Source: a virus
Taxonomy: Duplodnaviria > Heunggongvirae > Uroviricota > Caudoviricetes
Virus record (IMG/VR): IMGVR_UViG_2563366798_000006
Location: 1-30,219 of that record
Strand: one strand, 5' to 3'
Length of the DNA: 30,219 nt
Position numbers and translations under genes: made by a program. This document shows positions 629-24,807 of this stretch, piece after piece (position 1 is the first letter of the stretch; the number at the start of each line of letters is the position of its first letter). The notes under the pieces are model-generated. The model was not told the DNA's origin, did not search any database, and worked only from the letters and a program-made list of their open reading frames with translations.

Positions 629-900
629 GTATTCGTATTGAAATTGGCGAACGTTATGTCGTTACCAGTGACAGCTTTCAGTTTATTCTCCACGAGAAAA
701 AGAGAGCGGAAAGCGGTAAAAACGCCGGTCAGGAATGGCTGGCGGTGGTTGGTTATTACCCGAAATTAAGCCAGCTCGTTTCCGGCCTGATGCATCACGA
801 TATTCTGACCGGAAGCGCAAAATCTTTTGCTGATTTAAACGCGCAGGTTGAGCAACTCAGCAAGCGTTGTTCAGAGGCTTTTGGCTCATATGGCCGTTAA
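625..900 (+). CDS. P2-family early hypothetical protein (orf83-like position)
   Basis: GGAGA SD 5 nt upstream of ATG 625. Start overlaps the preceding stop and its 3' end overlaps the gene A start. Confidence 0.5.
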   Translation: MSIRIEIGERYVVTSDSFQFILHEKKRAESGKNAGQEWLAVVGYYPKLSQLVSGLMHHDILTGSAKSFADLNAQVEQLSKRCSEAFGSYGR

Positions 901-3166
901 AGCCTCCGGGCGTTTTGTCCCTCCGTCAGCATTTGCCGCAGGCACCGGTAAGGCGTTTACCGGTGCTTATGCATGGAACGCGCCACGCGAGGCTGTCGGG
1001 CGCGAAAGACCTCTTACACGTGACGAGATGCGTCAGGTGCAAGGTGTTTTATCCACGATTAACCGCCTGCCTTACTTTTTGCGCTCGCTGTTTACTTCAC
1101 GCTATGACTACATCCGGCGCAATAAAAGCCCGGTACACGGGTTTTATTTCCTCACATCCACTTTTCAGCGTCGTTTATGGCCGCGCATTGAGCGCGTGAA
1201 TCAGCGCCATGAAATGAACACCGACGCGTCGTTACTGTTTCTGGCAGAGCGTGACCACTATGCGCGCCTGCCGGGAATGAATGACAAGGAGCTGAAAAAA
1301 TTTGCCGCCCGTATCTCATCGCAGCTTTTCATGATGTATGAGGAACTCAGCGATGCCTGGGTGGATGCGCATGGCGAAAAAGAATCGCTGTTTACGGATG
1401 AGGCGCAGGCTCACCTCTATGGTCATGTTGCTGGCGCTGCACGTGCTTTCAATATTTCCCCGCTCTACTGGAAAAAATACCGTAAAGGACAGATGACCAC
1501 GAGGCAGGCATATTCTGCCATTGCCCGTCTGTTTAACGATGAGTGGTGGACTCATCAGCTTAAAGGCCAGCGTATGCGCTGGCATGAGGCGTTACTGATC
1601 GCTGTCGGGGAGGTCAATAAAGACCGTTCTCCTTATGCCAGTAAACATGCCATTCGTGATGTGCGTGCACGCCGCCAGGCAAATCTGGAATTTCTTAAAT
1701 CGTGTGACCTTGAAAACAGGGAAACCGGCGAGCGCATCGACCTTATCAGTAAGGTGATGGGCAGTATTTCTAATCCTGAAATTCGCCGGATGGAGCTGAT
1801 GAACACCATCGCCGGTATTGAGCGTTACGCCGCCGCAGAGGGTGATGTGGGGATGTTTATCACGCTGACCGCGCCGTCAAAGTATCACCCGACACGTCAG
1901 GTTGGAAAAGGCGAAAATAAAACCGTCCAGCTTAATCACGGCTGGAACGATGAGGCATTTAATCCAAAGGATGCGCAGCGTTATCTCTGCCGTATCTGGA
2001 GCCTGATGCGCACGGCATTCAAGGATAATGATTTACAGGTCTACGGTTTGCGAGTCGTCGAGCCACACCACGACGGAACGCCGCACTGGCATATGATGCT
2101 TTTTTGTAATCCACGCCAGCGTAACCAGATTATCGAAATCATGCGTCGCTATGCGCTCAAAGAGGATGGCGACGAAAGAGGAGCCGCGCGAAACCGTTTT
2201 CAGGCAAAACACCTTAACCGGGGCGGTGCTGCGGGATATATCGCGAAATACATTTCAAAAAATATCGACGGCTATGCACTGGATGGTCAGCTCGATAACG
2301 ATACCGGCAGACCGCTGAAAGATACTGCGGCGGCTGTTACCGCATGGGCGTCAACGTGGCGCATCCCGCAATTTAAAACGGTTGGCCTGCCGACAATGGG
2401 AGCTTACCGTGAGCTACGTAAATTGCCTCGCGGCGTCAGTATTGCTGATGAGTTTGACGAACGCGTCGAGGCTGCTCGCGCTGCCGCAGACAGTGGTGAT
2501 TTTGCGTTGTATATCAGCGCGCAGGGCGGGGCAAATGTCCCGCGCGATTGTCAGACTGTCAGGGTCGCCCGTAGCCCGTCGGATGACGTTAACGAGTACG
2601 AGGAAGAAGTCGAGAGAGTGGTCGGCATTTACGCGCCGCATCTCGGCGCGCGTCATATTCATATCACCAGAACGACGGACTGGCGCATTGTGCCGAAAGT
2701 TCCGGTCGTTGAGCCTTTGACTTTAAAAAGCGGCATCGCCGCGCCTCGGAGTCCTGTCAATAACTGTGGAAAGCTCACCGGCGGTAATACTTCGTTACCG
2801 GCCCCCTCGCCTTCTGAGCACGCCGCAGCAGTGCTTAATCTGGTTGATGACGGTGTTATCGAATGGAATGACCCGGAGGTCGTGAGGACGCTCAGGGGTG
2901 CATTAAAACACGGCCTGAAAATACCAAATCGTCAGCAAAGAAACGGAAGCCCGTTAAAACCACATGAAATAGCACCGTCGGCCAGGCTGACCCGGTCGGA
3001 ACGATTGCAAATTACCCGTATCCGCGTTGATCTCGCTCAGAACGGTATCAGGCCGCAACGATGGGAGCTTGAGGCGCTGGCGCGTGGCGCGACCGTAAAT
3101 TATGACGGGAAACCTTTCACTTATCAGGTCGCTGATGATTGGCCGGGATTTTTGTTACCCATTTGA
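890..3166 (+). CDS. A: Rolling-circle replication initiator protein A (HUH endonuclease)
   Basis: Product contains PHWHMMLF (HUH-type His motif) and GYIAKYISK (paired catalytic tyrosines Y-x3-Y), as in P2 gpA. Start placed at ATG 890 (MAVKASGRF...); the ORF track's 848 is a TTG. Confidence 0.88.
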   Translation: MAVKASGRFVPPSAFAAGTGKAFTGAYAWNAPREAVGRERPLTRDEMRQVQGVLSTINRLPYFLRSLFTSRYDYIRRNKSPVHGFYFLTSTFQRRLWPRIERVNQRHEMNTDASLLFLAERDHYARLPGMNDKELKKFAARISSQLFMMYEELSDAWVDAHGEKESLFTDEAQAHLYGHVAGAARAFNISPLYWKKYRKGQMTTRQAYSAIARLFNDEWWTHQLKGQRMRWHEALLIAVGEVNKDRSPYASKHAIRDVRARRQANLEFLKSCDLENRETGERIDLISKVMGSISNPEIRRMELMNTIAGIERYAAAEGDVGMFITLTAPSKYHPTRQVGKGENKTVQLNHGWNDEAFNPKDAQRYLCRIWSLMRTAFKDNDLQVYGLRVVEPHHDGTPHWHMMLFCNPRQRNQIIEIMRRYALKEDGDERGAARNRFQAKHLNRGGAAGYIAKYISKNIDGYALDGQLDNDTGRPLKDTAAAVTAWASTWRIPQFKTVGLPTMGAYRELRKLPRGVSIADEFDERVEAARAAADSGDFALYISAQGGANVPRDCQTVRVARSPSDDVNEYEEEVERVVGIYAPHLGARHIHITRTTDWRIVPKVPVVEPLTLKSGIAAPRSPVNNCGKLTGGNTSLPAPSPSEHAAAVLNLVDDGVIEWNDPEVVRTLRGALKHGLKIPNRQQRNGSPLKPHEIAPSARLTRSERLQITRIRVDLAQNGIRPQRWELEALARGATVNYDGKPFTYQVADDWPGFLLPI

Positions 3167-3426
3167 GTAAAAATACAGCGTGATTTTATATGTCTTTGAA
3201 TGGATTATGCGAAGCACCTCTAAGGTAGATGAGGAGCAATAGCGTGTTGAATCAGAAGGCTAAATTGTATTGAATCGTTAGCATGTAATTGAAGGCAGCT
3301 ATTTGATTCGAGTCATAAAAGAGCATCTATTTCGGTTAATAAAACCATTGCGAGTGACTTTATGTCGAAGCATAATTCATCTCGAGCGAAGTCTTGCTAG
3401 TCTTTCATCGGATTGATGACGGGCGC

Positions 3427-3456
3427 AAAAAAACCACCCTGGCAGGTGGTTTTTTT
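3427..3456. terminator. Bidirectional intrinsic terminator (A-tract / GC stem / T-tract)
   Basis: AAAAAAACCACC-CTGGCA-GGTGGTTTTTTT: 6-bp GC-rich stem ACCACC/GGTGGT flanked by A7 and T7 runs, so it can terminate transcripts on both strands. Confidence 0.6.
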
Positions 3457-3468
3457 GTTTGAAGCATA

Positions 3469-3582
3469 CTAAAGAAAAATACTTACATGGATATTACTGA
3501 CGTTTACTGACAAACCACTCGGACTACCATATGGATAGCCAAAGAGGGCCAGAACGAGAATGCAGTAATAGCACTTCTTCAT
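3469..3582 (-). CDS. Candidate small ORF (37 aa, MKKCYYCILVLALFGYPYGSPSGLSVNVSNIHVSIFL)
   Basis: Minus-strand ATG at 3582-3580 preceded by a perfect AGGAGG SD (spacer CGAT). Stop TAG at 3471-3469, 12 nt before the terminator hairpin. Hydrophobic N-terminus. Not in the ORF track because it is under 60 aa. Confidence 0.25.
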   Translation of the reverse strand: MKKCYYCILVLALFGYPYGSPSGLSVNVSNIHVSIFL

Positions 3583-4238
3583 ATCGCCTCCTGTAAGCAG
3601 AGGGCAATTTCCGCCGATATATGCGCTTCTAAGGCGGAGTGACTATTGAGCGAAGTCTTGCCCTGAAATAATGCTCTGTTTAAACGCAAAGTGATCTGGC
3701 ATATCACTGAACAGAGAACCTGAACAACACAACATATAGTATGTCGTTGTTTCTGGTTGCATTTTATGTTGTGTAATACTGGTTTTGCATCAAGGATGTT
3801 TGAGCTTTTTTTGATATAGCTCAAAGTAAAAAGCAGAGACTACGGATGATAAGGTCTTGAAAGCAATGTAAATTTTTTAAAGTTGTGAGTGGCTAGAAAT
3901 GCACAGTTTCAATATGGCGGATTTAAACAAGTAATTAAAAATAGCGCCATAAATTCCAATAAAATCATTATGTTGCGTTTTCTGTGGAAACTGCGGTGAC
4001 TCTGAAATTTTCTTTTAGTGTCGCTGAGGTTTAACAACTCGCTGCGCAAGTAGTTAGTGTTTTTTTAACTCAATATCCTGATTTATAAGGTTTTTTATAA
4101 ATCGTGGGCTGATTGCGCGTATTCATCTCGTGTTATCAGCAAAGATAAGCGCTATATGCAAAACTGAATGCATATATGATGTCGAAAATGTTATGGGAAA
4201 ACGTGGATTAGTGTTATAGTAATGGCTGAAAAACAGCC

Positions 4239-4267
4239 TTGACATAAAATAACAACTGTGATATGGC
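4239..4267 (+). promoter_or_regulatory. Putative sigma70 promoter for the ImmA-like gene
   Basis: TTGACA (4239-4244), 17-bp spacer, then TGaTATGGC (TG at 4259-4260, hexamer 4262-4267), about 37 bp upstream of the ATG. The -10 is imperfect. Confidence 0.35.
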
Positions 4268-4303
4268 TGTGCATACTTAACTTTTTTAACGTAGGAGGCA
4301 ACC

Positions 4304-4789
4304 ATGAGCTATGCAGCTAAAAAACTGCTTGACCGCTATTGGGATCGCCGACTACCTGTCGATCCGTTTAAGCTTGCTAAAGCGTGGGGTGCTCGTGTTG
4401 AAGCACTTGAGGAATCGGCTTATAACAACGATGGGTTAAGCGGTCTGGCTGTCATCAAAAAGGGTGTCCATAGGATTTATTTTGATTCTAGTGAACATTC
4501 TAATCGTCAACGTTTTACTGTTGCACACGAGTTAGGTCATCATGTGCTGGGGCATACCCAGGACGGAGAGTACCATCGGGATAATGTCGGGAATTATTCA
4601 ACAGGTGCTCGTGATTACCGTGAGGTTGAAGCAAACAAGTTTGCTGCTGAGTTGTTAATGCCTGAGTCTGCTATACGTCAATTGGTATCCAGAGAAGGTA
4701 TTGATAGCACTTTGAGATTAGCAAGCATCTTTAATGTATCAGAAGCCGCTATGCATTGGCGCTTAAAGAGCTTAGGAATGGCTTATTAA
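4304..4789 (+). CDS. ImmA/IrrE-family (COG2856, M78-type) zinc metallopeptidase, no N-terminal HTH
   Basis: AGGAGG SD 7 nt upstream of ATG 4304. Product has FTVAHELGHHVLGH (HEXXH zinc motif) followed by EVEANKFAAELLMPE, the hallmark ImmA/IrrE arrangement. AT-rich coding sequence. Confidence 0.8.
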   Translation: MSYAAKKLLDRYWDRRLPVDPFKLAKAWGARVEALEESAYNNDGLSGLAVIKKGVHRIYFDSSEHSNRQRFTVAHELGHHVLGHTQDGEYHRDNVGNYSTGARDYREVEANKFAAELLMPESAIRQLVSREGIDSTLRLASIFNVSEAAMHWRLKSLGMAY

Positions 4790-4817
4790 TTAGCCTTTAA
4801 CTTTTAACCTGTTTAAA

Positions 4818-4855
4818 ATCACCTTTACGTTTGTACATGTAAGGGTGATTTTTTT
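4818..4855 (+). terminator. Strong intrinsic terminator / attenuator hairpin after the ImmA-like gene
   Basis: 11-bp stem ATCACCTTTAC / GTAAGGGTGAT (10 Watson-Crick pairs plus one G-U), 10-nt loop, followed directly by a T run to 4855. The right arm contains the AAGGGTGA SD of the downstream ORF, whose ATG is at 4856. Confidence 0.55.
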
Positions 4856-5455
4856 ATGGCTGATATTGATTTATCTGGACAGTCCCCAGAGCAAGGAACC
4901 ACTCCTAAGGGCGATTTAGATCCTGATATCCTTATAAGGCGAGATCGACGCGATGGTATAGAGCGTAGAAGTATGCGATTAGTGCTCTCTGCCGTTGTGC
5001 TTTGTTTTGCTTGTACATTTCTATGGCAGGGGCTTAACTTTGCTTTGGCTGTTGGAAATGGCTTGCTGGAAGCGAAAAGCAGTATTGCCACAGCGATAAC
5101 ACAAAAAGTAGATGCACAAACTTGTGTTTCAGCAGAAAAATGTTCTGCTTTATCTGCGGATCCGAAGATGGCTGATGAGAGGATAACACCATCTTCAGAC
5201 ACTAATAAAGTTAGAAAATCTATTTCTGGTTTATCCACCGATTGGTTATCGGCCAGTTCTCTAATAGCTATTGTTGCATTCATCCTTGGTGTGGGTTTAA
5301 CTTTGCTTTTGACTCTTCTTAAATCAGCATTTCAACACCCGACAGATAAAGACTTTAGAACAAAGTCGACATCTAATACTATTGAGTTGGCCACGCCAAT
5401 CAGTGAATTAATAATTGGTGTTCTGAATATAATTAAAGACAAACTATCTAAGTAA
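4856..5455 (+). CDS. Small membrane protein with two predicted transmembrane helices
   Basis: 199-aa product: charged N-terminus (RRDRRDGIERR), helix LVLSAVVLCFACTFLWQGLNFALAV, soluble segment, second helix LIAIVAFILGVGLTLLLTLL, amphipathic C-terminus. Its own terminator lies about 40 nt downstream. The start is sequestered in the upstream hairpin, so expression is uncertain. Confidence 0.5.
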   Translation: MADIDLSGQSPEQGTTPKGDLDPDILIRRDRRDGIERRSMRLVLSAVVLCFACTFLWQGLNFALAVGNGLLEAKSSIATAITQKVDAQTCVSAEKCSALSADPKMADERITPSSDTNKVRKSISGLSTDWLSASSLIAIVAFILGVGLTLLLTLLKSAFQHPTDKDFRTKSTSNTIELATPISELIIGVLNIIKDKLSK

Positions 5456-5496
5456 AGCATTAGTTGTGATTTTTTATTGGTTTTAGTGATAATACA

Positions 5497-5530
5497 TCTC
5501 CAGTACTTATTGTTACTGGAGAGTATTTTT
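5497..5530 (+). terminator. Intrinsic terminator after the membrane-protein ORF
   Basis: 9-bp stem TCTCCAGTA / TACTGGAGA (5497-5505 / 5514-5522), 8-nt loop, then GTATTTTT. It sits between the convergent gene ends at 5455 and 5538. Confidence 0.45.
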
Positions 5531-5537
5531 AGTCGTT

Positions 5538-6479
5538 TTATATTTTTAATGTTAGTGAATGATATTCACGAGAGTTCACGTTCGATGTGATGTAATCGGG
5601 GGCGTTAACACCAAGAATCGCAACGAGCAATCGGCAAATTAAAGCCTGCATTTGTTGTAATATGTCATCTCCATATTGATAATTGTTAATAGTGGTAAAG
5701 CCAAGTGGTTGACCATGAAACATAGCTTCATGAAAGTTTTCATTGCGGATGTTTGTAATGTTTTTTTTGCCTGTAACCCATGATGGTCGTGGTATGCCAT
5801 AAGTTTTGCAGATCCACTTCAAGCGCCTGGAGTGATTTAGAGTCTTTTCTGTACACTTGTTCTTTTCTGCCCATGTTAAAGCAAAGCAACTATCCAGTGC
5901 CATATAAAGATACTGGAATTTTTCGAAGCTAAGGTATTGTGGGTTTTGGGATAAAAATAGTGCATGCACTATTGCTGCTATATTTATTGGTGCGTGTTTG
6001 GTTTTTTTCTCGCTAGACATGTATTTGAGTGCTAATTCTATAACCTCTTTTTCAGAACACTTGACCAGAATAAAGTCAGTTAATTTGCTGGGTTTTATTG
6101 GGGTTGCGTCTAAAAAACCGGCATCAGTAGTTGTTAATCTTATCCCTTTGAAAAAAGACAGACACCACACAGCAAAATTGAGAGTTTCTAGTGAAGATGT
6201 ATTTTTTAATTTTAGTGAGTGTGTTTTGGGTAAGCCAAATACTCGTTGGCTAAAAGGCATTGTGGATATGCCTCCATTGAGGTTATATACTTCTTGGTTT
6301 CCTGGGTATATCCAACCGTTAATAACATTTCTGTGATTGTTTATAAGATTTGTTTTTTCCGCTAGACCGGGTAAAGTAAGTAAAGAAAAATCATCAGTTT
6401 CAACGTTAACCTCTACTGGATAGTATCCAAACTCAGCTTCAATATCATTGGATTGCTGTTCGTCAACTTTACCTTGCAT
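5538..6479 (-). CDS. Hypothetical 313-aa cargo protein; candidate HEPN-like (R-N-x3-H) abortive-infection protein
   Basis: Minus-strand ATG at 6479-6477 with GGAG SD 6 nt upstream. AT-rich. Product contains IRNENFHEAMF, which fits the HEPN R-x4-6-H motif. No Walker or other motif recognised. Confidence 0.6.
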   Translation of the reverse strand: MQGKVDEQQSNDIEAEFGYYPVEVNVETDDFSLLTLPGLAEKTNLINNHRNVINGWIYPGNQEVYNLNGGISTMPFSQRVFGLPKTHSLKLKNTSSLETLNFAVWCLSFFKGIRLTTTDAGFLDATPIKPSKLTDFILVKCSEKEVIELALKYMSSEKKTKHAPINIAAIVHALFLSQNPQYLSFEKFQYLYMALDSCFALTWAEKNKCTEKTLNHSRRLKWICKTYGIPRPSWVTGKKNITNIRNENFHEAMFHGQPLGFTTINNYQYGDDILQQMQALICRLLVAILGVNAPDYITSNVNSREYHSLTLKI

Positions 6480-6716
6480 ACATTGCTCCGGTCAAAAATA
6501 GGCTCGATAATTCTCGTAAGCCTATCATGTTCGCAAAGTATCCATACCTGTGGATTTTGTAAATTTAAGTTGATTTGTCATTAAATAAGCCGTGCATGCA
6601 ACAAGTGAATGTTTTTGCATGCGTCGGGGATGCCCGTTCCGGCTGCTTGCGGTCAGAGCTGGTGCGGATCCATAGTATCTAAGCAACTGCATTAAAACCG
6701 CCCTATGAAGCGGGCG

Positions 6717-6735
6717 GGCGAGGCGGGGAAAGCAC
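6717..6735. other. cos: cos site (19-nt cohesive-end sequence of P2-type phages)
   Basis: GGCGAGGCGGGGAAAGCAC matches the P2 cohesive-end sequence as I recall it. It lies where expected, between the TO region and gene Q. Confidence 0.6.
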
Positions 6736-6876
6736 TGCGCGCTGGCGGTGGTGCTGATTTTATTTTTTCAGCGTCTGAGCGCGTCGTGATGGCGTTTAGA
6801 TTGTTCGCCGGGGCGTTGGTTTGTCTGCGGGGTGTTTTGCGCGGAGGTAAGCGTGTGAGGGCGTGATGACGGGGTG

Positions 6877-6899
6877 TAAAAAAGCCGCCCGCAGGCGGC
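6877..6899 (-). terminator. Intrinsic terminator downstream of Q (minus strand)
   Basis: Hairpin GCCGCC-cgca-GGCGGC at 6884-6899; on the minus-strand transcript it is followed by a U run (plus-strand A run 6877-6883), starting 5 nt after the Q stop. Confidence 0.5.
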
Positions 6900-6904
6900 G
6901 ATGT

Positions 6905-7939
6905 TCAGCCGTTGTCAGTGTCCAGTGAGTAGTTTTTAAAGCGGATGACCTCCTGATCGAGCCAGCCGTTTATCTCGCGGATCCTGTCCTGTAACGGGAT
7001 AAGCTCATTGCGGACAAAGACCTTTGCCACTTTCTCAATATCTCCCAGCGACCCGACGTTCTCCGGCTTGCCGCCCATCAACTGAAAGGGGATGCGGTGT
7101 GCGTCCAGCAGGTCAGCGGCGCTGGCTTTTTTGATATTAAAAAAATCGTCCTTCGTCGCCACTTCACTGAGGGGGATAATTTTAATGCCGTCGGCTTTCC
7201 CCTGCGGGGCATAGAGAAACAGATTTTTAAAGTTATTGCGGCCTTTCGACTTAACCATGTTTTCGCGAAGCATTTCGATATCGTTGCGATCCTGCACGGC
7301 ATCGGTGACGTACATGATGTATCCGGCATGTGCGCCATTTTCGTAATACTTGCGGCGGAACAGCGTGGCCGACTCATTCAGCCAGGCAGAGTTAAGGGCG
7401 CTGAGATATTCCGGCAGGCCGTACAGCTCCTGATTAATATCCGGCTCCAGCAGGTGAAACACGGAGCCGGGCGCGAAGGCTGTCGGCTCGTTGAAGGACG
7501 GCACCCACCAGTAAACATCCTCTTCCACACCACGGCGGGTATATTTTGCCGGTGAGGTTTCCAGTCTGATGACCTTACCGGTGGTGCTGTAACGCTTTTC
7601 CAGAAACGCATTACCGAACACCAGAAAATCCAGCACAAAGCGGCTGAAATCCTGCTGGGAAAGCCACGGATGCGGGATAAATGTCGAGGCCAGAATATTA
7701 CGTTTGACGTAAATCGGGGAGCTGTGATGCACGGCAGCACGCAGGCTTTTTGCCAGACCGGTAAAGCTGACCGGTGGCTCATACCATCTGCCGTTACTGA
7801 TGCACTCAACGTAATCCAGAATGTCACGGCGGTCGAGTACCGGCACCGGCTCACCAAAGGTGAATGCCTCCATTTTCGGGGCGCTGGCGGTCATTTTTTT
7901 TGCCGCAGGTTGCGGTGTTTTCCCTTTTTTCTTGCTCAT
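6905..7939 (-). CDS. Q: Portal (capsid portal) protein Q
   Basis: 344-aa product at the size and position of P2 gpQ, first gene after cos on the minus strand. Start overlaps the P stop (ATGA). Confidence 0.88.
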   Translation of the reverse strand: MSKKKGKTPQPAAKKMTASAPKMEAFTFGEPVPVLDRRDILDYVECISNGRWYEPPVSFTGLAKSLRAAVHHSSPIYVKRNILASTFIPHPWLSQQDFSRFVLDFLVFGNAFLEKRYSTTGKVIRLETSPAKYTRRGVEEDVYWWVPSFNEPTAFAPGSVFHLLEPDINQELYGLPEYLSALNSAWLNESATLFRRKYYENGAHAGYIMYVTDAVQDRNDIEMLRENMVKSKGRNNFKNLFLYAPQGKADGIKIIPLSEVATKDDFFNIKKASAADLLDAHRIPFQLMGGKPENVGSLGDIEKVAKVFVRNELIPLQDRIREINGWLDQEVIRFKNYSLDTDNG

Positions 7940-9711
7940 CAGTAAAACTCCAGAATGGTGGATGTCAGCGGGGTGCTGATACCGGCGGTGAGTGGCTCAT
8001 TTAACAGGGCGTGCATGGTCGCCCAGGCGAGGTCGGCGTGGCTGGCTTCCTCGCTGCGGCTGGCCTCATAGGTGGCGCTGCGTCCGCTGCTGGTCATGGT
8101 CTTGCGGATAGCCATAAACGAGCTGGTGATGTCGGTGGCGCTGACGTCATATTCCAGACAGCCACGACGGATAACGTCTTTTGCCTTGAGCACCATTGCG
8201 GTTTTCATTTCCGGCGTGTAGCGGATATCGCGCGCGGCGGGATAGAACGAGCGCACGAGCTGGAACACGCCGATACCGAGGCCGGTGGCATCAATTCCGA
8301 TGTATTCGACGTTGTATTTTTCGGTGAGTTTGCGGATGGATTCAGCCTGGGTGGCAAAGTCCATGCCTTTCCACTGGTGACGCTCAAGTATTCTGAATTT
8401 GCCACCGGCCACCACCGGCGGTGCCAGCACCACGCATCCGGCGCTGTCGCCACGGTGTGACGGGTCGTAACCAATCCATACCGGACGGGAGCCGAATGGA
8501 TTCGCGGCAAACGGCGCATAGTCTTCCCATTCTTCCAGCGTGTCGACCATGCAGCGTTGCAGCTCCTCGAACGGGAACACCGATGCCTTGTCGTCAACAA
8601 ATTCACACATGAACAGGTTTTTAAAATCGTCGGCGCTGTTTTCGCGTTTGAGCTGCTCAATGTCGAACAGCGTGCAGCCACCTTTCAGGGCGTCCTCAAT
8701 GGTGACAATCTGCCGCCACTGGCCGTCCGCACAGAGAAGCCCACCGGCAAGGGCGTTATGACTGACGTCGATTTCCACGCGTTCAGCGGCGCTGGCGCGT
8801 CCCCGGTTAAACAGTTCACCCGACCAGAACGGGTAGGCGTCGTGCGCCAGCGTGGACGGGGTGGAGAAATAGGTCGAGCGCAGGTGACTCTGTGAGGCCA
8901 TACCTGATGCCACCTTACGCAGTACCTGAAAATTCGGGATCCAGAAAATCTCGTCGACGTACAGGTCGCCGTTATGGCTCTGTGCGGTGTTGGAGTTGGT
9001 GCCGAGAAAAATCAGTTTTGCGCCGTTATTGCCCAGGACAATCGGGTCACCGGTCAGGTCAACGTCAACCAGCCGGGCAAAGGCGATGATGTATTCGCGG
9101 AACACATACGCCTGCGTTTTACTGGCCGACAGAAAAATCTGGTTATGACCGGTTTTCAGGGCGCGCAGCAGCGCCTCGCGGGAAAAATAAAACGTCGCGC
9201 CAATCTGGCGGGATTTCAGGATATCGCGGATGCGGTGCTCAAGCCCGGCGCGATACCAGTGCAACTGATAGTCGAAAGACTGCTCAAAGAAAATCTGCTC
9301 CAGCTTTTCGATGGCCTCGTCACTGAAAAAATTCTTTTTCGGTTTGCGACGCCCGCCTTTGTTGCGGTTAGCGACGTTCGGATTAAGGTCTGCCTCGTTG
9401 CCGGTCTGACTGTAACGGTTGACCCGTGCCAGTCGTTCAATCTGGCGTCCCAGCAGGTCAATTTCCTTGAAGTCACCGCCGGTTTTCTGCGGTTTGATGA
9501 TGAGCTGGGTCAGCCGCGCTTCCAGACTCATTTCGACACGGCTGATGGGGGCAACGCTGTCCCAGCCGTCGCGCTGTTTCCAGCTCTGCACCGTCGGGCG
9601 TTTCATCTGCAATATGGCGGCAATCTGCGGCACGGAAAACCCCTGCCAGTACAGCAGCGCCGCCTGACGACGCGGGTCGTGTAAAAGAGTGGTGTCTGTG
9701 GTGATGGTCAT
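7939..9711 (-). CDS. P: Terminase large (ATPase) subunit P
   Basis: About 590-aa product. Start placed at the internal Met (MTITTDTT...) with GAGGT SD 5 nt upstream. Synteny Q-P divergent from O. Confidence 0.88.
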   Translation of the reverse strand: MTITTDTTLLHDPRRQAALLYWQGFSVPQIAAILQMKRPTVQSWKQRDGWDSVAPISRVEMSLEARLTQLIIKPQKTGGDFKEIDLLGRQIERLARVNRYSQTGNEADLNPNVANRNKGGRRKPKKNFFSDEAIEKLEQIFFEQSFDYQLHWYRAGLEHRIRDILKSRQIGATFYFSREALLRALKTGHNQIFLSASKTQAYVFREYIIAFARLVDVDLTGDPIVLGNNGAKLIFLGTNSNTAQSHNGDLYVDEIFWIPNFQVLRKVASGMASQSHLRSTYFSTPSTLAHDAYPFWSGELFNRGRASAAERVEIDVSHNALAGGLLCADGQWRQIVTIEDALKGGCTLFDIEQLKRENSADDFKNLFMCEFVDDKASVFPFEELQRCMVDTLEEWEDYAPFAANPFGSRPVWIGYDPSHRGDSAGCVVLAPPVVAGGKFRILERHQWKGMDFATQAESIRKLTEKYNVEYIGIDATGLGIGVFQLVRSFYPAARDIRYTPEMKTAMVLKAKDVIRRGCLEYDVSATDITSSFMAIRKTMTSSGRSATYEASRSEEASHADLAWATMHALLNEPLTAGISTPLTSTILEFY

Positions 9712-18583: not shown

Positions 18584-21196
18584 ATGAGCACGAAATTTAA
18601 AACCGTTATCACTACTGCCGGAGCCGCGAAGCTGGCAGCCGCCACTGTTCCCGGCGGGAAAAAAGTAAACCTGTCTGCAATGGCTGTGGGTGACGGTAAT
18701 GGCCAATTGCCGGTGCCGGATGCCGGTCAGACGAAACTGGTGCATGAAGTCTGGCGTCATGCCCTGAATAAAGTCAGTGTGGATAACAAGAATAAAAACT
18801 ATATCGTGGCTGAACTGGTTGTTCCGCCAGAAGTGGGCGGCTTCTGGATGCGTGAGCTTGGTCTGTATGACGATGCCGGAACACTGATTGCGGTATCCAA
18901 CATGGCAGAAAGCTATAAGCCAGAACTGGCTGAAGGCTCCGGACGTGCGCAGACCTGCCGCATGGTTATTATTCTCAGCAACGTGGCGTCCGTTGAGCTG
19001 AGTATTGATGCCAGCACAGTGATGGCGACGCAGGATTACGTCGATGACAAAATCGCAGAGCATGAGCAGTCCCGCCGCCATCCTGACGCCACGCTGACAG
19101 AAAAAGGTTTTACTCAGTTAAGCAGTGCAACAAACAGCACCAGTGAGTCATTGGCGGCAACGCCAAAAGCGGTCAAGGCAGCAAATGACAACGCAAATTC
19201 ACGTCTGGCGAAAAATCAGAATGGTGCAGATATCCAGGATAAATCAGCTTTTCTGGACAATGTTGGCGTTACCAGCCTGACGTTTATGAAAAACAACGGC
19301 GAAATGCCGGTTGATGCTGATCTGAATACATTTGGTCCTGTTAAGGCTTATTCAGGTATCTGGTCTAAAGCAACGTCCACCAACGCAACACTGGAGAAAA
19401 ATTTCCCGGAAGATAATGCTGTCGGTGTGCTTGAGGTTTTTGCTGGCGGCAATTTTGCAGGCACGCAACGCTATACCACACGTGACGGAAATTTGTATAT
19501 CCGCAAACTCATTGGAACATGGAATGGTAATGATGGACCATGGGGAGCATGGCGCCATGTTCAGGCTGTAACGCGTGCTCTAAGTACGACCATTGACCTT
19601 AACTCTCTCGGTGGCGCAGAACATTTAGGTTTATGGAGAAACAGCAGTTCAGCAATAGCTTCTTTTGAACGACATTACCCTGAGCAGGGAGGAGACGCGC
19701 AGGGCATTCTGGAAATTTTCGAAGGTGGGCTATATGGACGCACGCAGCGTTATACAACCCGTAACGGGACTATGTATATTCGCGGCCTGACAGCCAAATG
19801 GGATGCAGAAAATCCACAGTGGGAAGACTGGATCCAAATTGGTTATCAGACCAGTAGTACCTTCTATGAGGATGACCTGGATGATTTGATGTCTCCGGGT
19901 ATTTACAGTGTGACAGGCAAAGCGACCCACACCCCAATCCAGGGGCAGTCTGGTTTTCTGGAAGTCATCAGGCGCAAGGATGGTGTCTATGTTTTGCAAC
20001 GTTACACGACCACAGGAACCAGCGCAGCTACAAAAGACCGTTTATATGAGCGAGTTTTTCTTGGTGGCTCATTTAACGCGTGGGGGGAGTGGCGACAGAT
20101 TTATAACTCAAACTCTTTGCCGTTAGAGTTGGGTATCGGTGGCGCAGTGGCAAAACTCACCAGCCTGGACTGGCAGACATACGATTTTGTGCCGGGCAGT
20201 CTGATAACCGTTCGGCTTGATAATATGACCAACATTCCCGACGGTATGGACTGGGGCGTCATTGATGGCAACCTGATAAACATCGCAGTTGGTCCGAGTG
20301 ATGATTCCGGTACGGGGCGCTCAATGCATGTATGGCGCAGCACTGTAAGTAAAGCGAACTACCGCTTTTTTATGGTGCGTATTTCAGGAAATCCGGGAAG
20401 CCGCACGATCACGACAAGACGTGTGCCAATTATCGACGAAGCTCAGACATGGGGCGCGAAACAGACATTCAGTGCTGGCCTTTCTGGCGAACTGTCCGGC
20501 AATGCGGCTACAGCTACAAAGCTGAAAACGCCAAGGACAATTAACGGCGTAAAATTTGACGGCTCGGCAAATATTGAAGCGTTTCCGCCAGGTGTTCCGC
20601 TGCCGTGGCCATCAGATACACCACCTGCAGGCTATGCGATCATGCAGGGGCAGACGTTTGATAAGGCTGCATATCCGAAACTGGCTATTGCCTATCCTTC
20701 TGGTGTTATTCCTGATATGCGCGGCTGGACAATCAAGGGCAAACCCGCCAGTGGGCGTGCCGTATTGTCACAGGAACAGGACGGGATTAAATCGCATACT
20801 CACAGCGCCAGTGCGTCAAATACGGACTTAGGAACGAAAACGACCAGTTCATTTGATTACGGGACAAAAACAGTCAGTACGTTTAACCACGGCACAAAAT
20901 CAACCAATACTTCTGGCAATCATACACATACCGTCGGTTTTGCTGTGAGCGTGCAATCAGGCGGTGCAGATTATGGTGTTCCGCGAAGTGATAAAGGTGC
21001 TACGACTACAAGTTCATCAGGCAATCATGCACATACAGTCGACATTGGAGCACATAACCATACTGTTGGTATTGGTGCACATTCACACACTGTTGCTATT
21101 GGCTCACACGGGCATTCCATTACCGTAAATGCTACTGGTAATACCGAAAACACCGTCAAAAACATCGCATTTAACTATATTGTGAGGCTTGCATAA
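18584..21196 (+). CDS. H: Tail fiber protein H (mosaic: P2-type N-terminus, internal triple repeat, collar-like domain, His-x-His C-terminus)
   Basis: The N-terminal ~200 aa match P2 gpH as recalled. 870 aa (P2 H is shorter, from memory). C-terminal part has a PWPSD...YPKL...DMRGW tail-collar-like motif and GNHTHTV / GNHAHTV / GAHNHTV / GAHSHTV / GSHGHSI repeats. Confidence 0.85.
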
Positions 21197-21774
21197 TGGC
21201 TTTCAGAATGAGTGCAGAAGCACAAACTATCCGCGTTTTCAATTTACTTGATGGAACCAATGAGTTTATTGGCGAAAGTGATGCATATATTCCGCCGTAT
21301 ACTGGCCTGCCTGCAAACAGTACAGATATTGCACCACCTGATATTCCTGCTGGTTATGCAGCCGTTTTCAATGCAGATGAAATGAAATGGGAGTTGATGG
21401 AAGATCATCGCGGAAAGACTGTCTACGAAACGAAAATGGGAGCAGCCATTTATATTTCTGAACTTGGCGCATTACCTCCAGACGTGACAGCCATTTCCCC
21501 GGAGGGGGATTATCAGAAATGGAACGGAAATGCGTGGGTGAATGATGAGAATGCAGAGCGTGATGCACTTGTCAGAGCGGCTGAGTCTCAGAAGAAAGAG
21601 CAGATTGCATATGCAGGTGAAATCATTGCCATGCTGCAGGATGCTGTCGATTTAGATATGGCTACCGAGGAAGAAAAGTTAAGCCTGACACACTGGAAAA
21701 AATACCGTGTGCTGCTTAATCGCGTTCAGCCGGAAAATGCTCCGGATATAGAATGGCCTGAAATGCCGCAATAA
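21196..21774 (+). CDS. G: Tail fiber assembly chaperone G
   Basis: 192 aa immediately after H; start overlaps the H stop (TAATG). Confidence 0.75.
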
Positions 21775-22072
21775 ATTGTATAAGCTCTGATGTGAGTTTA
21801 TACATCTATGGCACAGAGTAAAACCTAATCTGACTGTCCGCTCTGTGCTAGGAGCGGACGTGATGCATATCTGTCACCAAATTTAATGTGCCACTACAAA
21901 CAGAGTATATAGTTGAATATTATAGTGCACCCCGGCCTCATGAATATAACGGTGGATTACCGCCGAACGAGTCGGAAAATAGATACTGGAAAAACTCTAA
22001 AATCGAGGCCAGTTTTTGTTGTTCTCTACAATAATAATCGGATTTTCCCATGACAAGTTTAATAGTATTTAG

Positions 22073-23182
22073 GTGCCTGAAGTGAAGTTGAAGAAGCTAT
22101 TGATGAAAGTTGTGAAAGTGGTAAAGGAGCAGGTTCTAAGTACCGTTATTTCGGGAATAATAGGCATAGCGGCTACAGTAGGGCTTTTCCATTTCACTTC
22201 ACAGCCAATACGATCTGCTGATGTTCGCGAAAAATTAGTTGAAATGGCTCGGGAGTGCATCCAGCAGCAGCTTGCCACACATTTGGACTCAGTGGCGTTT
22301 GACTCAGTGGCTAGCGAGTCTCTCGATCTAAGCACCTCAAACTCCGTTGTAGTCTACGGAAGAGCTGTGAGCACAAATGGTGCCCTTAGCCGTTTCCTGA
22401 TGGTCTTCGAGCCCTCTGGACAGAGTTTGATAGATAAGGTGGTTGGCAGACCTGGATTCTACGATATTGGGTATTGGGCAATCATCCCAGACGCAGGGGA
22501 CGACGAGGTTGTGGCTTCTTCAGTAAACATTGAAGACCTCGACAAAGATGGTAACAAGGACATACTAGTCCGCTTAAAGTCAACTTACGCGGATGGTGTA
22601 TCCAAAGGGCTTCTTATACTTAAAAAGGATATCCATGATGTATGGCATTTGATGGGGCTTCCATCAATGACAGAGATCATGCATTCCATTGCTGCAGGTC
22701 AGCCTCCCCAGCCGGAAGGTCTTCACCTTCCACTTCCGGCAATACAATGGTTTAGTAATGACGAAAAACTCAAACCAAAGTCTGATATCAAACAATATCT
22801 TAATTGGGAAATTGACGAAGATAACTTGCAGGTCGCTGATTCCACTGGAAATCATTCTTTTTGGATGTTCAGAAACGGCACCAAGATAAAAATGTTCGAG
22901 AATGGACAAGCCGGCTACAAGCACTTTGGTGTACTGGTCAACATCAATGATGAAGAGGCGATACAGGGAAGGCATCATCTCATGGTCAGCTTTTTCAAGA
23001 TAGAGAATAATAGTTTGGTTCCTGATCCGAATTGGAACTGGGCCTATCCCATGTTCTCTATCGGATTAGAGGATAGCCAAGAAGTTGAATTGAGTGACAT
23101 GCAGGAAGCGGGCTTACAAGCTCATGTTTCTGGTAGCTCCGTTTTCGGCCTGACAGAGTTTGGGAAAATGGACTCAGATTAA
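22073..23182 (+). CDS. Cargo gene at the Z/fun hotspot position: N-terminally membrane-anchored 369-aa protein of unknown function
   Basis: AT-rich ORF between G and FI. Lys-rich N-terminus then one hydrophobic helix (VLSTVISGIIGIAATVGLFHF), predicted N-in/C-out, and a ~330-aa soluble domain with a DLDKDGNKD motif. The track start is GTG 22073; an in-frame ATG at 22103 is an alternative. Confidence 0.6.
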   Translation: MPEVKLKKLLMKVVKVVKEQVLSTVISGIIGIAATVGLFHFTSQPIRSADVREKLVEMARECIQQQLATHLDSVAFDSVASESLDLSTSNSVVVYGRAVSTNGALSRFLMVFEPSGQSLIDKVVGRPGFYDIGYWAIIPDAGDDEVVASSVNIEDLDKDGNKDILVRLKSTYADGVSKGLLILKKDIHDVWHLMGLPSMTEIMHSIAAGQPPQPEGLHLPLPAIQWFSNDEKLKPKSDIKQYLNWEIDEDNLQVADSTGNHSFWMFRNGTKIKMFENGQAGYKHFGVLVNINDEEAIQGRHHLMVSFFKIENNSLVPDPNWNWAYPMFSIGLEDSQEVELSDMQEAGLQAHVSGSSVFGLTEFGKMDSD

Positions 23183-23493
23183 TATTCGCTAACCTTACCA
23201 ACGAAGAGCAGGTCACAGGTATGGCCTAATTATGTTTTCAGAGGAGTCAGGGCTCAAGAATGCCCCCAGATAAGCCGTAAATCCTGTAGCGCAAAATCGT
23301 CTCAGATGACGCAGAGATATTAAAAACGCCTCAACCTGTTCATCAATTAATTGATAGGTTGAACTGTTAGTTAAACTTTCACCAGCAGAAAGGTATGAAC
23401 TTTTTCGACTCGCTCAAAGCTGGCTGTCAGAGCTGATAGCGTTTTGGCTACGTAAATTGTCAGTTGGAAACTGAGCGAGTACAAATCAAGACT

Positions 23494-23520
23494 GGCGGGC
23501 TGATTGCCCGCCTTTTCTTT
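23494..23520 (+). terminator. Intrinsic terminator downstream of the Z/fun-position cargo gene
   Basis: GGCGGGC-tgatt-GCCCGCC perfect 7-bp GC stem followed by TTTTCTTT. Confidence 0.5.
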
Positions 23521-23616
23521 ATCTGTTGTTTCATCCACTGACCAGCCAGGTCAAATAGCGTCTCATGCACTGCCCAACAGAAAATAGTTGCACCCATTAA
23601 CCACGGAGTTAAACGG

Positions 23617-24807
23617 ATGAGCGACTATCATCATGGCGTGCAGGTGCTGGAGATTAACGACGGCACCCGCGTCATTTCCACCGTATCCACCGCCATTGTC
23701 GGCATGGTCTGCACGGCCAGCGATGCGGATGCGGAAACCTTCCCCCTCAATAAACCGGTGCTGATTACCAATGTGCAGAGTGCGATTGCAAAGGCCGGTA
23801 AAAAAGGCACGCTGGCGGCGTCGTTGCAGGCCATCGCTGACCAGTCAAAACCGGTCACCGTTGTTGTGCGCGTGGAAGACGGCACCGGCGACGACGAAGA
23901 AACGAAACTTGCGCAGACCGTTTCCAATATCATCGGCACCACTGACGAAAACGGTCAGTACACCGGACTGAAAGCCCTGATGGGGGCTGAGTCGGTTACC
24001 GGCGTTAAACCGCGCATTCTTGGTGTGCCGGGGCTGGACACCAAAGAGGTTGCCGTCGCACTGGCATCGGTATGCCAGGAACTGAATGCATTCGGGTATA
24101 TCAGCGCATGGGGCTGTAAAACCATTTCCGAGGTGAAAGCCTACCGCCAGAATTTCAGCCAGCGTGAGCTGATGGTCATCTGGCCGGATTTCCTCGCATG
24201 GGATACGGTTACCAGTACCACCGCCACCGCGTATGCCACCGCCCGTGCGCTGGGGCTGCGCGCTAAAATCGACCAGGAGCAGGGCTGGCATAAAACGCTG
24301 TCCAACGTCGGGGTAAACGGTGTTACCGGCATCAGCGCATCTGTATTCTGGGATTTGCAGAAGTCTGGCACTGATGCTGACCTGCTGAACGAGGCAGGCG
24401 TCACAACGCTGGTTCGCCGCGACGGTTTCCGTTTCTGGGGTAACCGTACCTGCTCCGATGACCCACTGTTCCTCTTTGAAAGCTACACACGCACCGCGCA
24501 GGTACTGGCTGACACGATGGCTGAGGCGCACATGTGGGCTATTGATAAGCCCATCACCGCAACACTGATTCGCGACATCATTGATGGCATCAATGCCAAA
24601 TTCCGCGAACTGAAAAGCAACGGTTATATCGTGGATGGCACATGCTGGTTCAGTGAAGAATCCAACGATGCGGAAACCCTCAAGGCCGGAAAACTGTATA
24701 TCGACTACGACTATACCCCGGTGCCTCCCCTCGAAAACCTGACCCTGCGCCAGCGTATTACTTCTAGATACCTGGCAAGTCTGGTCACCTCGGTTAACAG
24801 CAATTAA
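23617..24807 (+). CDS. FI: Tail sheath protein FI
   Basis: 396 aa, GGAG SD, P2 gpFI size and position. Confidence 0.9.
   Translation: MSDYHHGVQVLEINDGTRVISTVSTAIVGMVCTASDADAETFPLNKPVLITNVQSAIAKAGKKGTLAASLQAIADQSKPVTVVVRVEDGTGDDEETKLAQTVSNIIGTTDENGQYTGLKALMGAESVTGVKPRILGVPGLDTKEVAVALASVCQELNAFGYISAWGCKTISEVKAYRQNFSQRELMVIWPDFLAWDTVTSTTATAYATARALGLRAKIDQEQGWHKTLSNVGVNGVTGISASVFWDLQKSGTDADLLNEAGVTTLVRRDGFRFWGNRTCSDDPLFLFESYTRTAQVLADTMAEAHMWAIDKPITATLIRDIIDGINAKFRELKSNGYIVDGTCWFSEESNDAETLKAGKLYIDYDYTPVPPLENLTLRQRITSRYLASLVTSVNSN

Follow-up and report, generated by a model that had tools for sequence, protein, structure and literature searches.

The 30,219-nucleotide stretch of DNA analysed here, which we refer to as the window (positions 1–30,219 of IMG/VR record IMGVR_UViG_2563366798_000006), is a P2-like prophage, and with near certainty the interval from 21775 to 23616 is variable cargo in the slot known as Z/fun, with the anatomy set out below. 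The interval contains one long open reading frame (ORF) on the plus strand (22073–23182), whose product we call the cargo protein; to its left lies the tail fibre assembly gene G, recognised by Caudo_TAP, and to its right the tail sheath gene FI with its Phage_sheath domains (Table 1). A preliminary description made from the letters alone had placed an AT-rich cargo gene between G and FI at the site of P2 fun(Z), and had suggested comparing related prophages for turnover of the cargo; the placement and the turnover are both borne out. The P2 annotation gives fun(Z), a 528-aa gene, as the counterpart in this slot, on the minus strand and hence opposite to the gene in the window, and the best-scoring phage and genome matches that lack the island align in the flanks only. 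The slot lies inside conserved left and right backbone repeats, in that 21751–21859 matches the left repeat annotated in AJ512683 (positions 7–115, at 88% identity) and 23410–23646 the right one, and both also align to P2 and fiAA91-ss. Its content differs among otherwise related prophages: 65 phage records match the flanks only, with the last ~207–208 bp 92–94% identical despite other cargo, and among complete Escherichia coli genomes 1949 of 5426 match the query, of which 52 carry the whole island at at least 99.5% identity. The GC content of the island (0.441) and of the cargo gene (0.453) is below that of the whole window (0.522) and of FI (0.559); gene G (0.456) is as low as the cargo gene. 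The Z/fun locus is a published defence-enriched hotspot (PMC9519451; bioRxiv 10.1101/2024.10.15.618418), and three PD systems of Vassallo et al. 2022 are reportedly cargo of the P2 Z/fun hotspot.

Table 1. Features of the interval between genes G and FI and of its flanks (positions in the window).
Position	Strand	Feature	Evidence
21196–21774	+	Gene G, tail fibre assembly protein, left flank	Pfam Caudo_TAP, E 2.8e-39; PGAP 'tail fiber assembly protein' in near-identical genomes
21775–21835		P2 backbone 3' of G, belonging to the 'left inverted repeat' of the P2-ECxx Z-region records	Alignment
21836–21859		Boundary hairpin A, GTCCGCT-CTGTGCTAGG-AGCGGAC, left edge of the variable slot	DNA fold z -4.45
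21860–21897	+	Scar of the cassette left end, upstream of the missing first gene	Cassette similarity
21898–22040	+	IS3-family remnant, 143 bp	PGAP pseudo-CDS 'IS3 family transposase, missing N-terminus'; blastn
22041–22102	+	Conserved leader of the cargo gene with Shine-Dalgarno-like motifs; alternative starts GTG 22073 and GTG 22082	Alignment of relatives
22103–23182	+	Cargo gene, 359-aa single-pass membrane protein (WP_001599801.1, phrog_15038)	Purifying selection, relatives, AlphaFold model
22133–22195	+	Codons of the N-terminal transmembrane helix, residues 11–31	Kyte-Doolittle mean 2.13 over 19 residues
22535–22561	+	DLDKDGNKD codons (D145–D153), FG-GAP-type calcium-loop motif	DxDxDGxxD pattern
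23183–23409	+	Cassette 3' flank, travels with the gene (227 bp)	82–85% identity to L004–L010, ~80% to L022
23404–23427		Degenerate boundary hairpin B, cassette/backbone junction	Alignment with L004 and fiAA91-ss
23410–23616	+	P2 backbone, 'right inverted repeat'	Long stem-loop, terminator, pF region; RNA fold z -4.46
23617–24807	+	FI tail sheath gene, right flank	Pfam Phage_sheath_1, Phage_sheath_1C, Gp18_domIII_N

The cargo is a decayed copy of a 2.4-kb two-gene cassette that circulates among islands, conjugative elements and prophages of the Enterobacterales. Two loci with a homologue 82% identical to the cargo protein, L004 and L006, share exactly positions 6901–9320 (2420 bp, 99.8% identity) and nothing beyond, their contexts being unrelated, and L013 carries the same unit at 86.8% identity. 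The intact unit consists of hairpin A, a 245-aa gene, 178 bp, the 359-aa gene, 235 bp and hairpin B. The two hairpins (6901–6924 and 9297–9320 in L004 and L006) have the same 7-bp stem in the same orientation, with loops yTGTGCCAGG in A and TCTCGCTCAy in B, and the outer stem edges are exactly where the identity between the loci ends. The P2 slot has a frame of the same design: hairpin A closes the left backbone in P2, P2-EC58 and fiAA91-ss, with the inserts diverging directly 3' of it, and hairpin B opens the right backbone, carrying a compensatory C:G to T:A change in fiAA91-ss and P2-EC58. In the window hairpin A is intact and hairpin B degenerate; the latter aligns with TCCGCT-TCTCGCTCAC-AGCGGAC of L004 and with GTCTGCT-ATTCGCTCAA-AGCAGAC of fiAA91-ss, and its folding is lost (z +1.0). 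This framing is probably what Nilsson et al. reportedly annotated in 2004 as left and right inverted repeats.

Besides hairpin A, the window retains 38 bp of the cassette left end and, starting 72 bp upstream of the second gene, all of the remainder, and an IS3 fragment stands in place of the ~960 bp that should hold the 245-aa gene. The left-end scar (21835–21899) is 76–79% identical to positions 6900–6970 of L004 and L006, the DNA ahead of the 245-aa gene. The fragment comprises the last 44 codons of a transposase (21900–22034) and the right end of the element, and blastn matches it to ISEc52-like and many other IS3 copies with query positions 9–151 covered; it belongs to the IS3 family but, at 143 bp, is not a functional element. 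The simplest history would be insertion of an IS3 element followed by a deletion that removed the 245-aa first gene, the second gene being kept with its leader and 3' flank. The scarred cassette is the only version found in P2-like elements, where the island is 99.4–99.9% identical across E. coli and E. albertii prophages; the backbones of these carriers are 93.9–97.2% identical to the window in FI, 93.3–99.7% in G and 75–90% in H. Because the island is near-identical while FI, G and H of the carriers diverge, the same island must have moved recently between diverged phage backbones; there are further records of the identical protein in E. marmotae and Salmonella. The 87-bp left backbone (21775–21861) is 93.1% identical to all five other island carriers compared, against >99% for the island itself, a step that hints at a recombination breakpoint near hairpin A in this particular prophage.

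Hairpins of this class extend well beyond the P2 slot. L006 has a second A...B unit directly upstream of the first (hairpins at 6861–6884 and 4746–4769), and in general the A...cargo...B units are 0.5–2.5 kb long, have the stem GTCCGCT-N10-AGCGGAC with class loops yTGTGCCArr (A) and yyTCGCTCAa (B), and are joined where they adjoin as B-15/18 bp-A. The exact stem is present in at least 120 viral contigs, with 131 hairpins divided into 57 of type A, 37 of type B and 37 with other loops; A...B pairs occur in seven viral contigs, and contigs with hairpins include L048, L060, L063, L107, L116, L125, L140 and L147. These patterns suggest that the hairpins are sequence-specific recombination sites or conserved linkers for cargo exchange, and we identified no recombinase for the A and B hairpins. 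Integron attC sites, Xer/dif sites and IS200/IS605 ends are not supported as the origin of the hairpins, as no matching core motifs were seen and identity between cassettes stops at the stem edges and not beyond them.

Similarity of the window to the cassettes of relatives resumes at 22030–22051, just ahead of the leader of the cargo gene, and bears on where translation starts. Alignment of the leaders reveals AAGGTG and (G)AAGGAG motifs and a 1-nt indel in relatives upstream of 22082. Since this indel breaks the frame of GTG 22073, that codon, from which the 369-residue product of the preliminary description was read, is the least supported start, and either ATG 22103 (359 aa) or GTG 22082 (366 aa) is likely to be used. 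The AAGGTG motif lies ~8 nt 5' of GTG 22082, which reads ATG in a Pantoea relative. Ahead of ATG 22103 the window has GAAGAAG where the relatives have GAAGGAG; PGAP (WP_001599801.1) and phrog_15038 both start at this ATG, and phrog_15038 covers residues 11–369 of the 369-aa reading (E 4.7e-259).

The ~300 bp upstream and ~430 bp downstream of the gene had been taken as plain non-coding DNA, and the gene was credited with a terminator of its own; neither view survives. The upstream part holds P2 backbone, hairpin A, the cassette scar and the IS3 remnant, and the downstream part consists of 227 bp of cassette 3' flank, whose identity to the DNA behind the homologues in L004–L010 and L022 extends to window positions 23402–23420, followed by 207 bp of P2 backbone. 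Within this backbone segment the terminator scan finds a strong intrinsic terminator (23494–23512) preceded by a long stem, and by alignment with P2 the segment corresponds to the region of the activator site and the start of the late promoter pF, which the P2 annotation places 97–69 bp ahead of FI. Because the terminator lies in backbone that is present, and conserved to the degree given above, whatever cargo P2-like phages hold, it belongs to the phage. The stretch 23398–23522 is itself of some interest, with a long stem (CUCGCUCA...UGAGCGAG) and then the terminator (z -4.46) and a sub-threshold Rfam match to PrrB/RsmZ (22 bits vs a gathering score of 44); it may encode a small RNA common to P2-like phages, or else act as a compound terminator that insulates the F operon. 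A 55-aa hypothetical protein that PGAP calls on the minus strand in related genomes (23371–23538) is probably spurious, as it spans both the cassette/backbone junction and the terminator.

That the ORF is a genuine gene follows from its dN/dS of 0.13–0.26 against five relatives, which reflects purifying selection. It belongs to a sparse family: a word-indexed search returned only 15 close clusters among 5.8 billion, and an exhaustive profile search 67 representatives, ~40 of them full length (340–420 aa). We have considered whether the island is a silent passenger, left behind by cassette traffic and without expression or selection in this prophage. The IS scar and lost first gene, the degenerate right hairpin, the weakened Shine-Dalgarno motif before ATG 22103 and the lack of a promoter-like site (see below) would all fit, and the carriers are too alike to inform on selection within E. 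coli. Nonetheless, the frame is intact in >200 cluster members from Escherichia species and Salmonella, purifying selection acts across the family, and diverged phage backbones have acquired the same island; moreover, because hairpin A has no T-run, read-through transcription from the late V operon into the cargo gene is possible. We therefore regard a silent passenger as very unlikely.

The family alignment has 32 members with 18–82% identity to the query, and each has a tail that is short and mostly basic, a single hydrophobic helix (residues 11–31) and a T-S-x-P motif. Further motifs common to the 32 are an FEP...LIDKLVGRxGFY block, a D-x-D-x-D-G-x-K-D/E loop, A-D-S...W181, L-P-S, R-N-G-G, H-P, D283...H291 and D308-x-x-W-N-W-G-Y-P-M-x-S. 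The DLDKDGNKD sequence noted earlier as calcium-binding-like fits the DxDxDGxxD pattern of FG-GAP/VCBS calcium loops, with D145 and G150 nearly invariant in the family, and FG-GAP_3 and FG-GAP repeat proteins match the family profile in many copies at positions ~131–177 only. We interpret this as a single FG-GAP-type blade, which the pattern and profile match together indicate; Pfam FG-GAP and FG-GAP_3 do not match the cargo protein itself above threshold, and it has no set of repeats closing into a propeller. It differs from the FG-GAP/VCBS propellers of integrin alpha and CRTAC1 in having one recognisable blade rather than seven, and the alignment with these extends over only ~150 residues, at high rmsd.

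The topology proposed in the preliminary description, a basic N-terminus inside, one membrane helix and a large domain outside the inner membrane, is sustained in part. The helix is present in all 32 members, and no member besides P0040 has a further strongly hydrophobic segment. A plain count of Lys and Arg within 15 residues of the helix gives no topology signal, with three on either side in this protein and 77 vs 68 in the family, so the positive-inside argument is uninformative in that form. Net charge is more telling: it is +3 before the helix and 0 after it in the cargo protein; the family averages +2.9 in the N-tail and +0.3 beyond the helix, and in 27 of the 32 members the excess of positive charge lies on the N side. 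Together with the FG-GAP loop, which is typical of exported proteins, this gives moderate support to a predicted N-in/C-out arrangement with the large domain outside the inner membrane. The distant member P0040, if its start codon is right, would point the other way, with an extra N-terminal hydrophobic segment bearing a lipobox-like LLGC and then an acidic loop before the family helix.

An initial AlphaFold model of the cargo protein had a pLDDT of 56.6, and with the 32-sequence alignment this rose to 90.0 (pTM 0.84); no close structural match to this confident model was found, and nothing significant in the viral structure library. The FG-GAP repeat proteins that match the family blade also weakly match Pfam PliI and CarG-like, and because they do so themselves, the PliI resemblance of the family is probably a matter of a shared blade-derived fold. 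PliI, Tsi1 and X-Tfi belong to one fold class, whose members inhibit peptidoglycan hydrolases in the periplasm, and provide a beta-sheet precedent (PMC10933484). Compared with PliI, Tsi1, X-Tfi and CarG, the cargo protein has ~11% identity, is tethered by a helix where they are soluble or lipid-anchored, and has an additional conserved domain of ~150 residues; we identified no inhibitory loop in it.

The same fold class inhibits lysozymes and secreted effectors (PMC10933484), which raises the alternative that the gene is an envelope-protection moron not aimed at phages, with a PliI/CarG/Tsi1-like domain directed at host lysozymes or at the type VI or type IV effectors of rivals, and thus an orphan immunity gene or a virulence-fitness factor. 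Human extra-intestinal isolates, O25b:H4 strains among them, commonly carry the island, and non-defence cargo such as cytolethal distending toxin is known in P2 hotspots (PMC9122126). The fold evidence is weak, however, with Pfam PliI (PF16743) unmatched by the cargo protein, which is three times the size of PliI and has the extra conserved domain at its C-terminus; no effector or secretion-system genes adjoin any relative examined, and the neighbours of the relatives are anti-phage genes that target nucleic acids. On this balance we think an envelope-protection role of that kind clearly unlikely.

These neighbourhoods have the pattern of defence islands. In L004, L005 and L007 the homologue lies in a CP4-57-like island with antirestriction, RadC, CbeA and WYL genes, in L006 in a primase island, and in L013 it adjoins an integrase. 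L008–L010 and L022 are Pantoea lambdoid prophages with a GmrSD protein matching PADLOC HEC-05, NgoMIV restriction-modification and DUF4238, and L012 is a conjugative element with DUF4238 directly downstream, EcoRII restriction-modification and a reverse transcriptase. Among the remainder, L021 has GmrSD_N and a RiboL-PSP HEPN protein, L011 a cytosine methylase and HNH, L016 a PLD-like nuclease, and L014 YaaC-like and DndB-like genes. DUF4238 alone protects against T7 (PMC9122126).

Two sets of genes recur beside the homologues. The first is the 245-aa gene of the cassette (7086–7823 in L004, 2360–3178 in L013), which accompanies the 359-aa gene at a distance of 178 bp in three unrelated contexts (L004/L005/L007, L006 and L013), the partners being 88% identical. 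Its product has an RNIMAH (R-x4-H) motif, over which there is a weak HEPN_Swt1 match (E 0.11); we do not assign it as HEPN, as this E value is all there is and the protein has no similarity to the RiboL-PSP HEPN protein of L021. E. coli plasmids encode a 77% identical homologue immediately downstream of a GIY-YIG nuclease gene (plasmid locus L031, 4017–4745), where the membrane-protein gene is absent, and the 245-aa gene may be an independent defence-type module. The second is a pair of genes for 275-aa and 251-aa proteins that precedes the membrane-protein gene in the Pantoea-type loci L010 (5921–7507) and L022 (3922–5508) and in L018 (2152–3704), with 29–31% identity between L018 and the Pantoea-type loci. 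Hydrophobic segments near the N-terminus and a GDYxGGxxNP motif mark the 251-aa protein, and neither protein has a Pfam or PADLOC match; the two genes may form a system of their own or be a second, alternative partner. The idea of one partner gene conserved throughout is thus rejected, since the 245-aa gene shows linkage in just three contexts and stands alone on plasmids, the other pair differs, and other relatives have neither.

The linkage of the first set does allow that the cargo gene is the orphaned half of a two-gene sensor-effector or abortive-infection pair, whose 245-aa partner, with its R-x4-H motif and perhaps an HEPN-like RNase, has been deleted, leaving a survivor that is inactive or partly active and hitch-hikes. 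Co-travel in three unrelated contexts, the left-end scar and IS3 remnant standing where the first gene should be, the HEPN_Swt1 hint and the lack of an upstream promoter-like site in the window speak for this explanation. Against this, most relatives (L008–L012, L014–L018, L021 and L022) lack the 245-aa partner, the plasmid homologues do without the membrane gene, the scarred island has been kept almost unchanged across diverged prophages, and the gene, with its low dN/dS, is free of decay. We judge the orphaned-half explanation rather unlikely.

We tentatively favour the reading that the cargo gene encodes an anti-phage protein acting at the envelope, to which we give not quite even weight. 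The product would be an inner-membrane protein with a short basic cytoplasmic tail, one membrane helix and ~325 residues in the periplasm, where a membrane-proximal helix would be followed by a beta domain around the single FG-GAP calcium loop and by a second conserved beta domain. This periplasmic part may bind a tail-tip component of an incoming phage, such as a peptidoglycan hydrolase or the membrane-penetration proteins, and binding would block genome entry, making this a superinfection-exclusion type of lysogenic conversion; we hold such an entry block, as a mechanism, to be possible yet doubtful. The exclusion reading draws on location, the defence-rich neighbourhoods of the relatives and the weak fold resemblance to periplasmic peptidoglycan-hydrolase inhibitors only. 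More specifically, the family could represent a new class of membrane-tethered periplasmic inhibitors with a PliI/Tsi1-like calcium-binding domain that would neutralise the peptidoglycan-degrading or membrane-piercing tips of phage tails, or secreted bacterial effectors. It would then constitute a single-gene exclusion system without kin among known defences, passed between phages, conjugative elements and genomic islands in a discrete cassette with a sequence-specific hairpin at either end; we regard this as a rather improbable extension of the envelope reading.

Phage T4 Spackle offers a precedent, as it excludes phages by inhibiting the gp5 tail lysozyme (PMC7677548). The cargo protein is like T4 Spackle and Imm in being phage-encoded and in its predicted inner-membrane or periplasmic location, and differs from Spackle, a 75-residue helical bundle (PMC7677548), in being larger and all-beta, with no relation in sequence or fold. 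With P2 Fun(Z) and other Z/fun cargo it shares the G–FI slot, the same left and right backbone repeats and an AT-rich, non-essential and variable character; it differs from Fun(Z) in being membrane-anchored rather than soluble, in strand, and in lacking sequence similarity. BLASTP against Fun(Z) (NP_046777, 528 aa) gave a best E of 6.2 with short random segments only, so that of the two options left open earlier, a Fun(Z) homologue or unrelated cargo, the latter applies. The preliminary description also likened the protein to the usual architecture of superinfection-exclusion proteins; this is a loose analogy, and the searches found no similarity to a known exclusion or defence family. Envelope-level superinfection-exclusion proteins include lactococcal Sie2009 and HK97 gp15, and the known Sie proteins are mostly much smaller.

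Several observations weigh against an anti-phage role at the envelope. The defence-database comparison proposed at the outset gave nothing: the protein has no match in PADLOC-DB 2.0.0 at E up to 1, nor does any of the 32 members at E up to 0.1. Searches of Pfam, NCBIfam and PDB sequences likewise returned no match for the single protein or for the 32-member alignment (Pfam matches none of the 32, and the alignment profile no PDB sequence), and the sole family-level match, phrog_15038, has no assigned function. We found no homology of the family to any known exclusion or defence family, no link to phage resistance, and, in a literature search, no paper on the family. A tblastn search of 50,697 phage records and 72,556 plasmids did not recover the gene. 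The relatives have no neighbour in common, and there is thus no conserved partner pointing to a mechanism. No sigma-70-like promoter site was found on the plus strand upstream of the cargo gene. If the start codon of P0040 is right, the large domain of that member would be cytoplasmic. Finally, the first cassette gene is lost, and should its product and the cargo protein act jointly, what is left may be inert.

Cargo is not confined to this slot in the window. The other P2 hotspot, between replication gene A (848–3166) and the portal gene (6905–7939, minus strand), is also loaded, its 3167–6904 interval encoding a 161-aa Peptidase_M78/ImmA-like protein (4304–4789) and two proteins with no Pfam match, of 199 aa (4856–5455) and 312 aa (5538–6479, minus strand). 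In addition, the 3' part of gene G (21539–21737) has a sub-threshold match to Rfam IS009, a candidate E. coli small RNA (52 bits vs a gathering score of 117).

The P2 Z/fun slot is already the source of several validated defence systems, and the locus is of a known type, the novelty lying in the candidate protein. To our knowledge there are few Gram-negative exclusion proteins with a known mechanism. An uncharacterised, well-folded family in this slot that recurs beside restriction, GmrSD, DUF4238 and HEPN genes is a candidate for an envelope-level anti-phage or immunity function. The hairpins common to the P2 slot and to unrelated islands provide a handle on how phage hotspots exchange their cargo. 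As the island is present in ~1% of complete E. coli genomes, many of them from human clinical isolates, it could matter for the choice of therapeutic phages.

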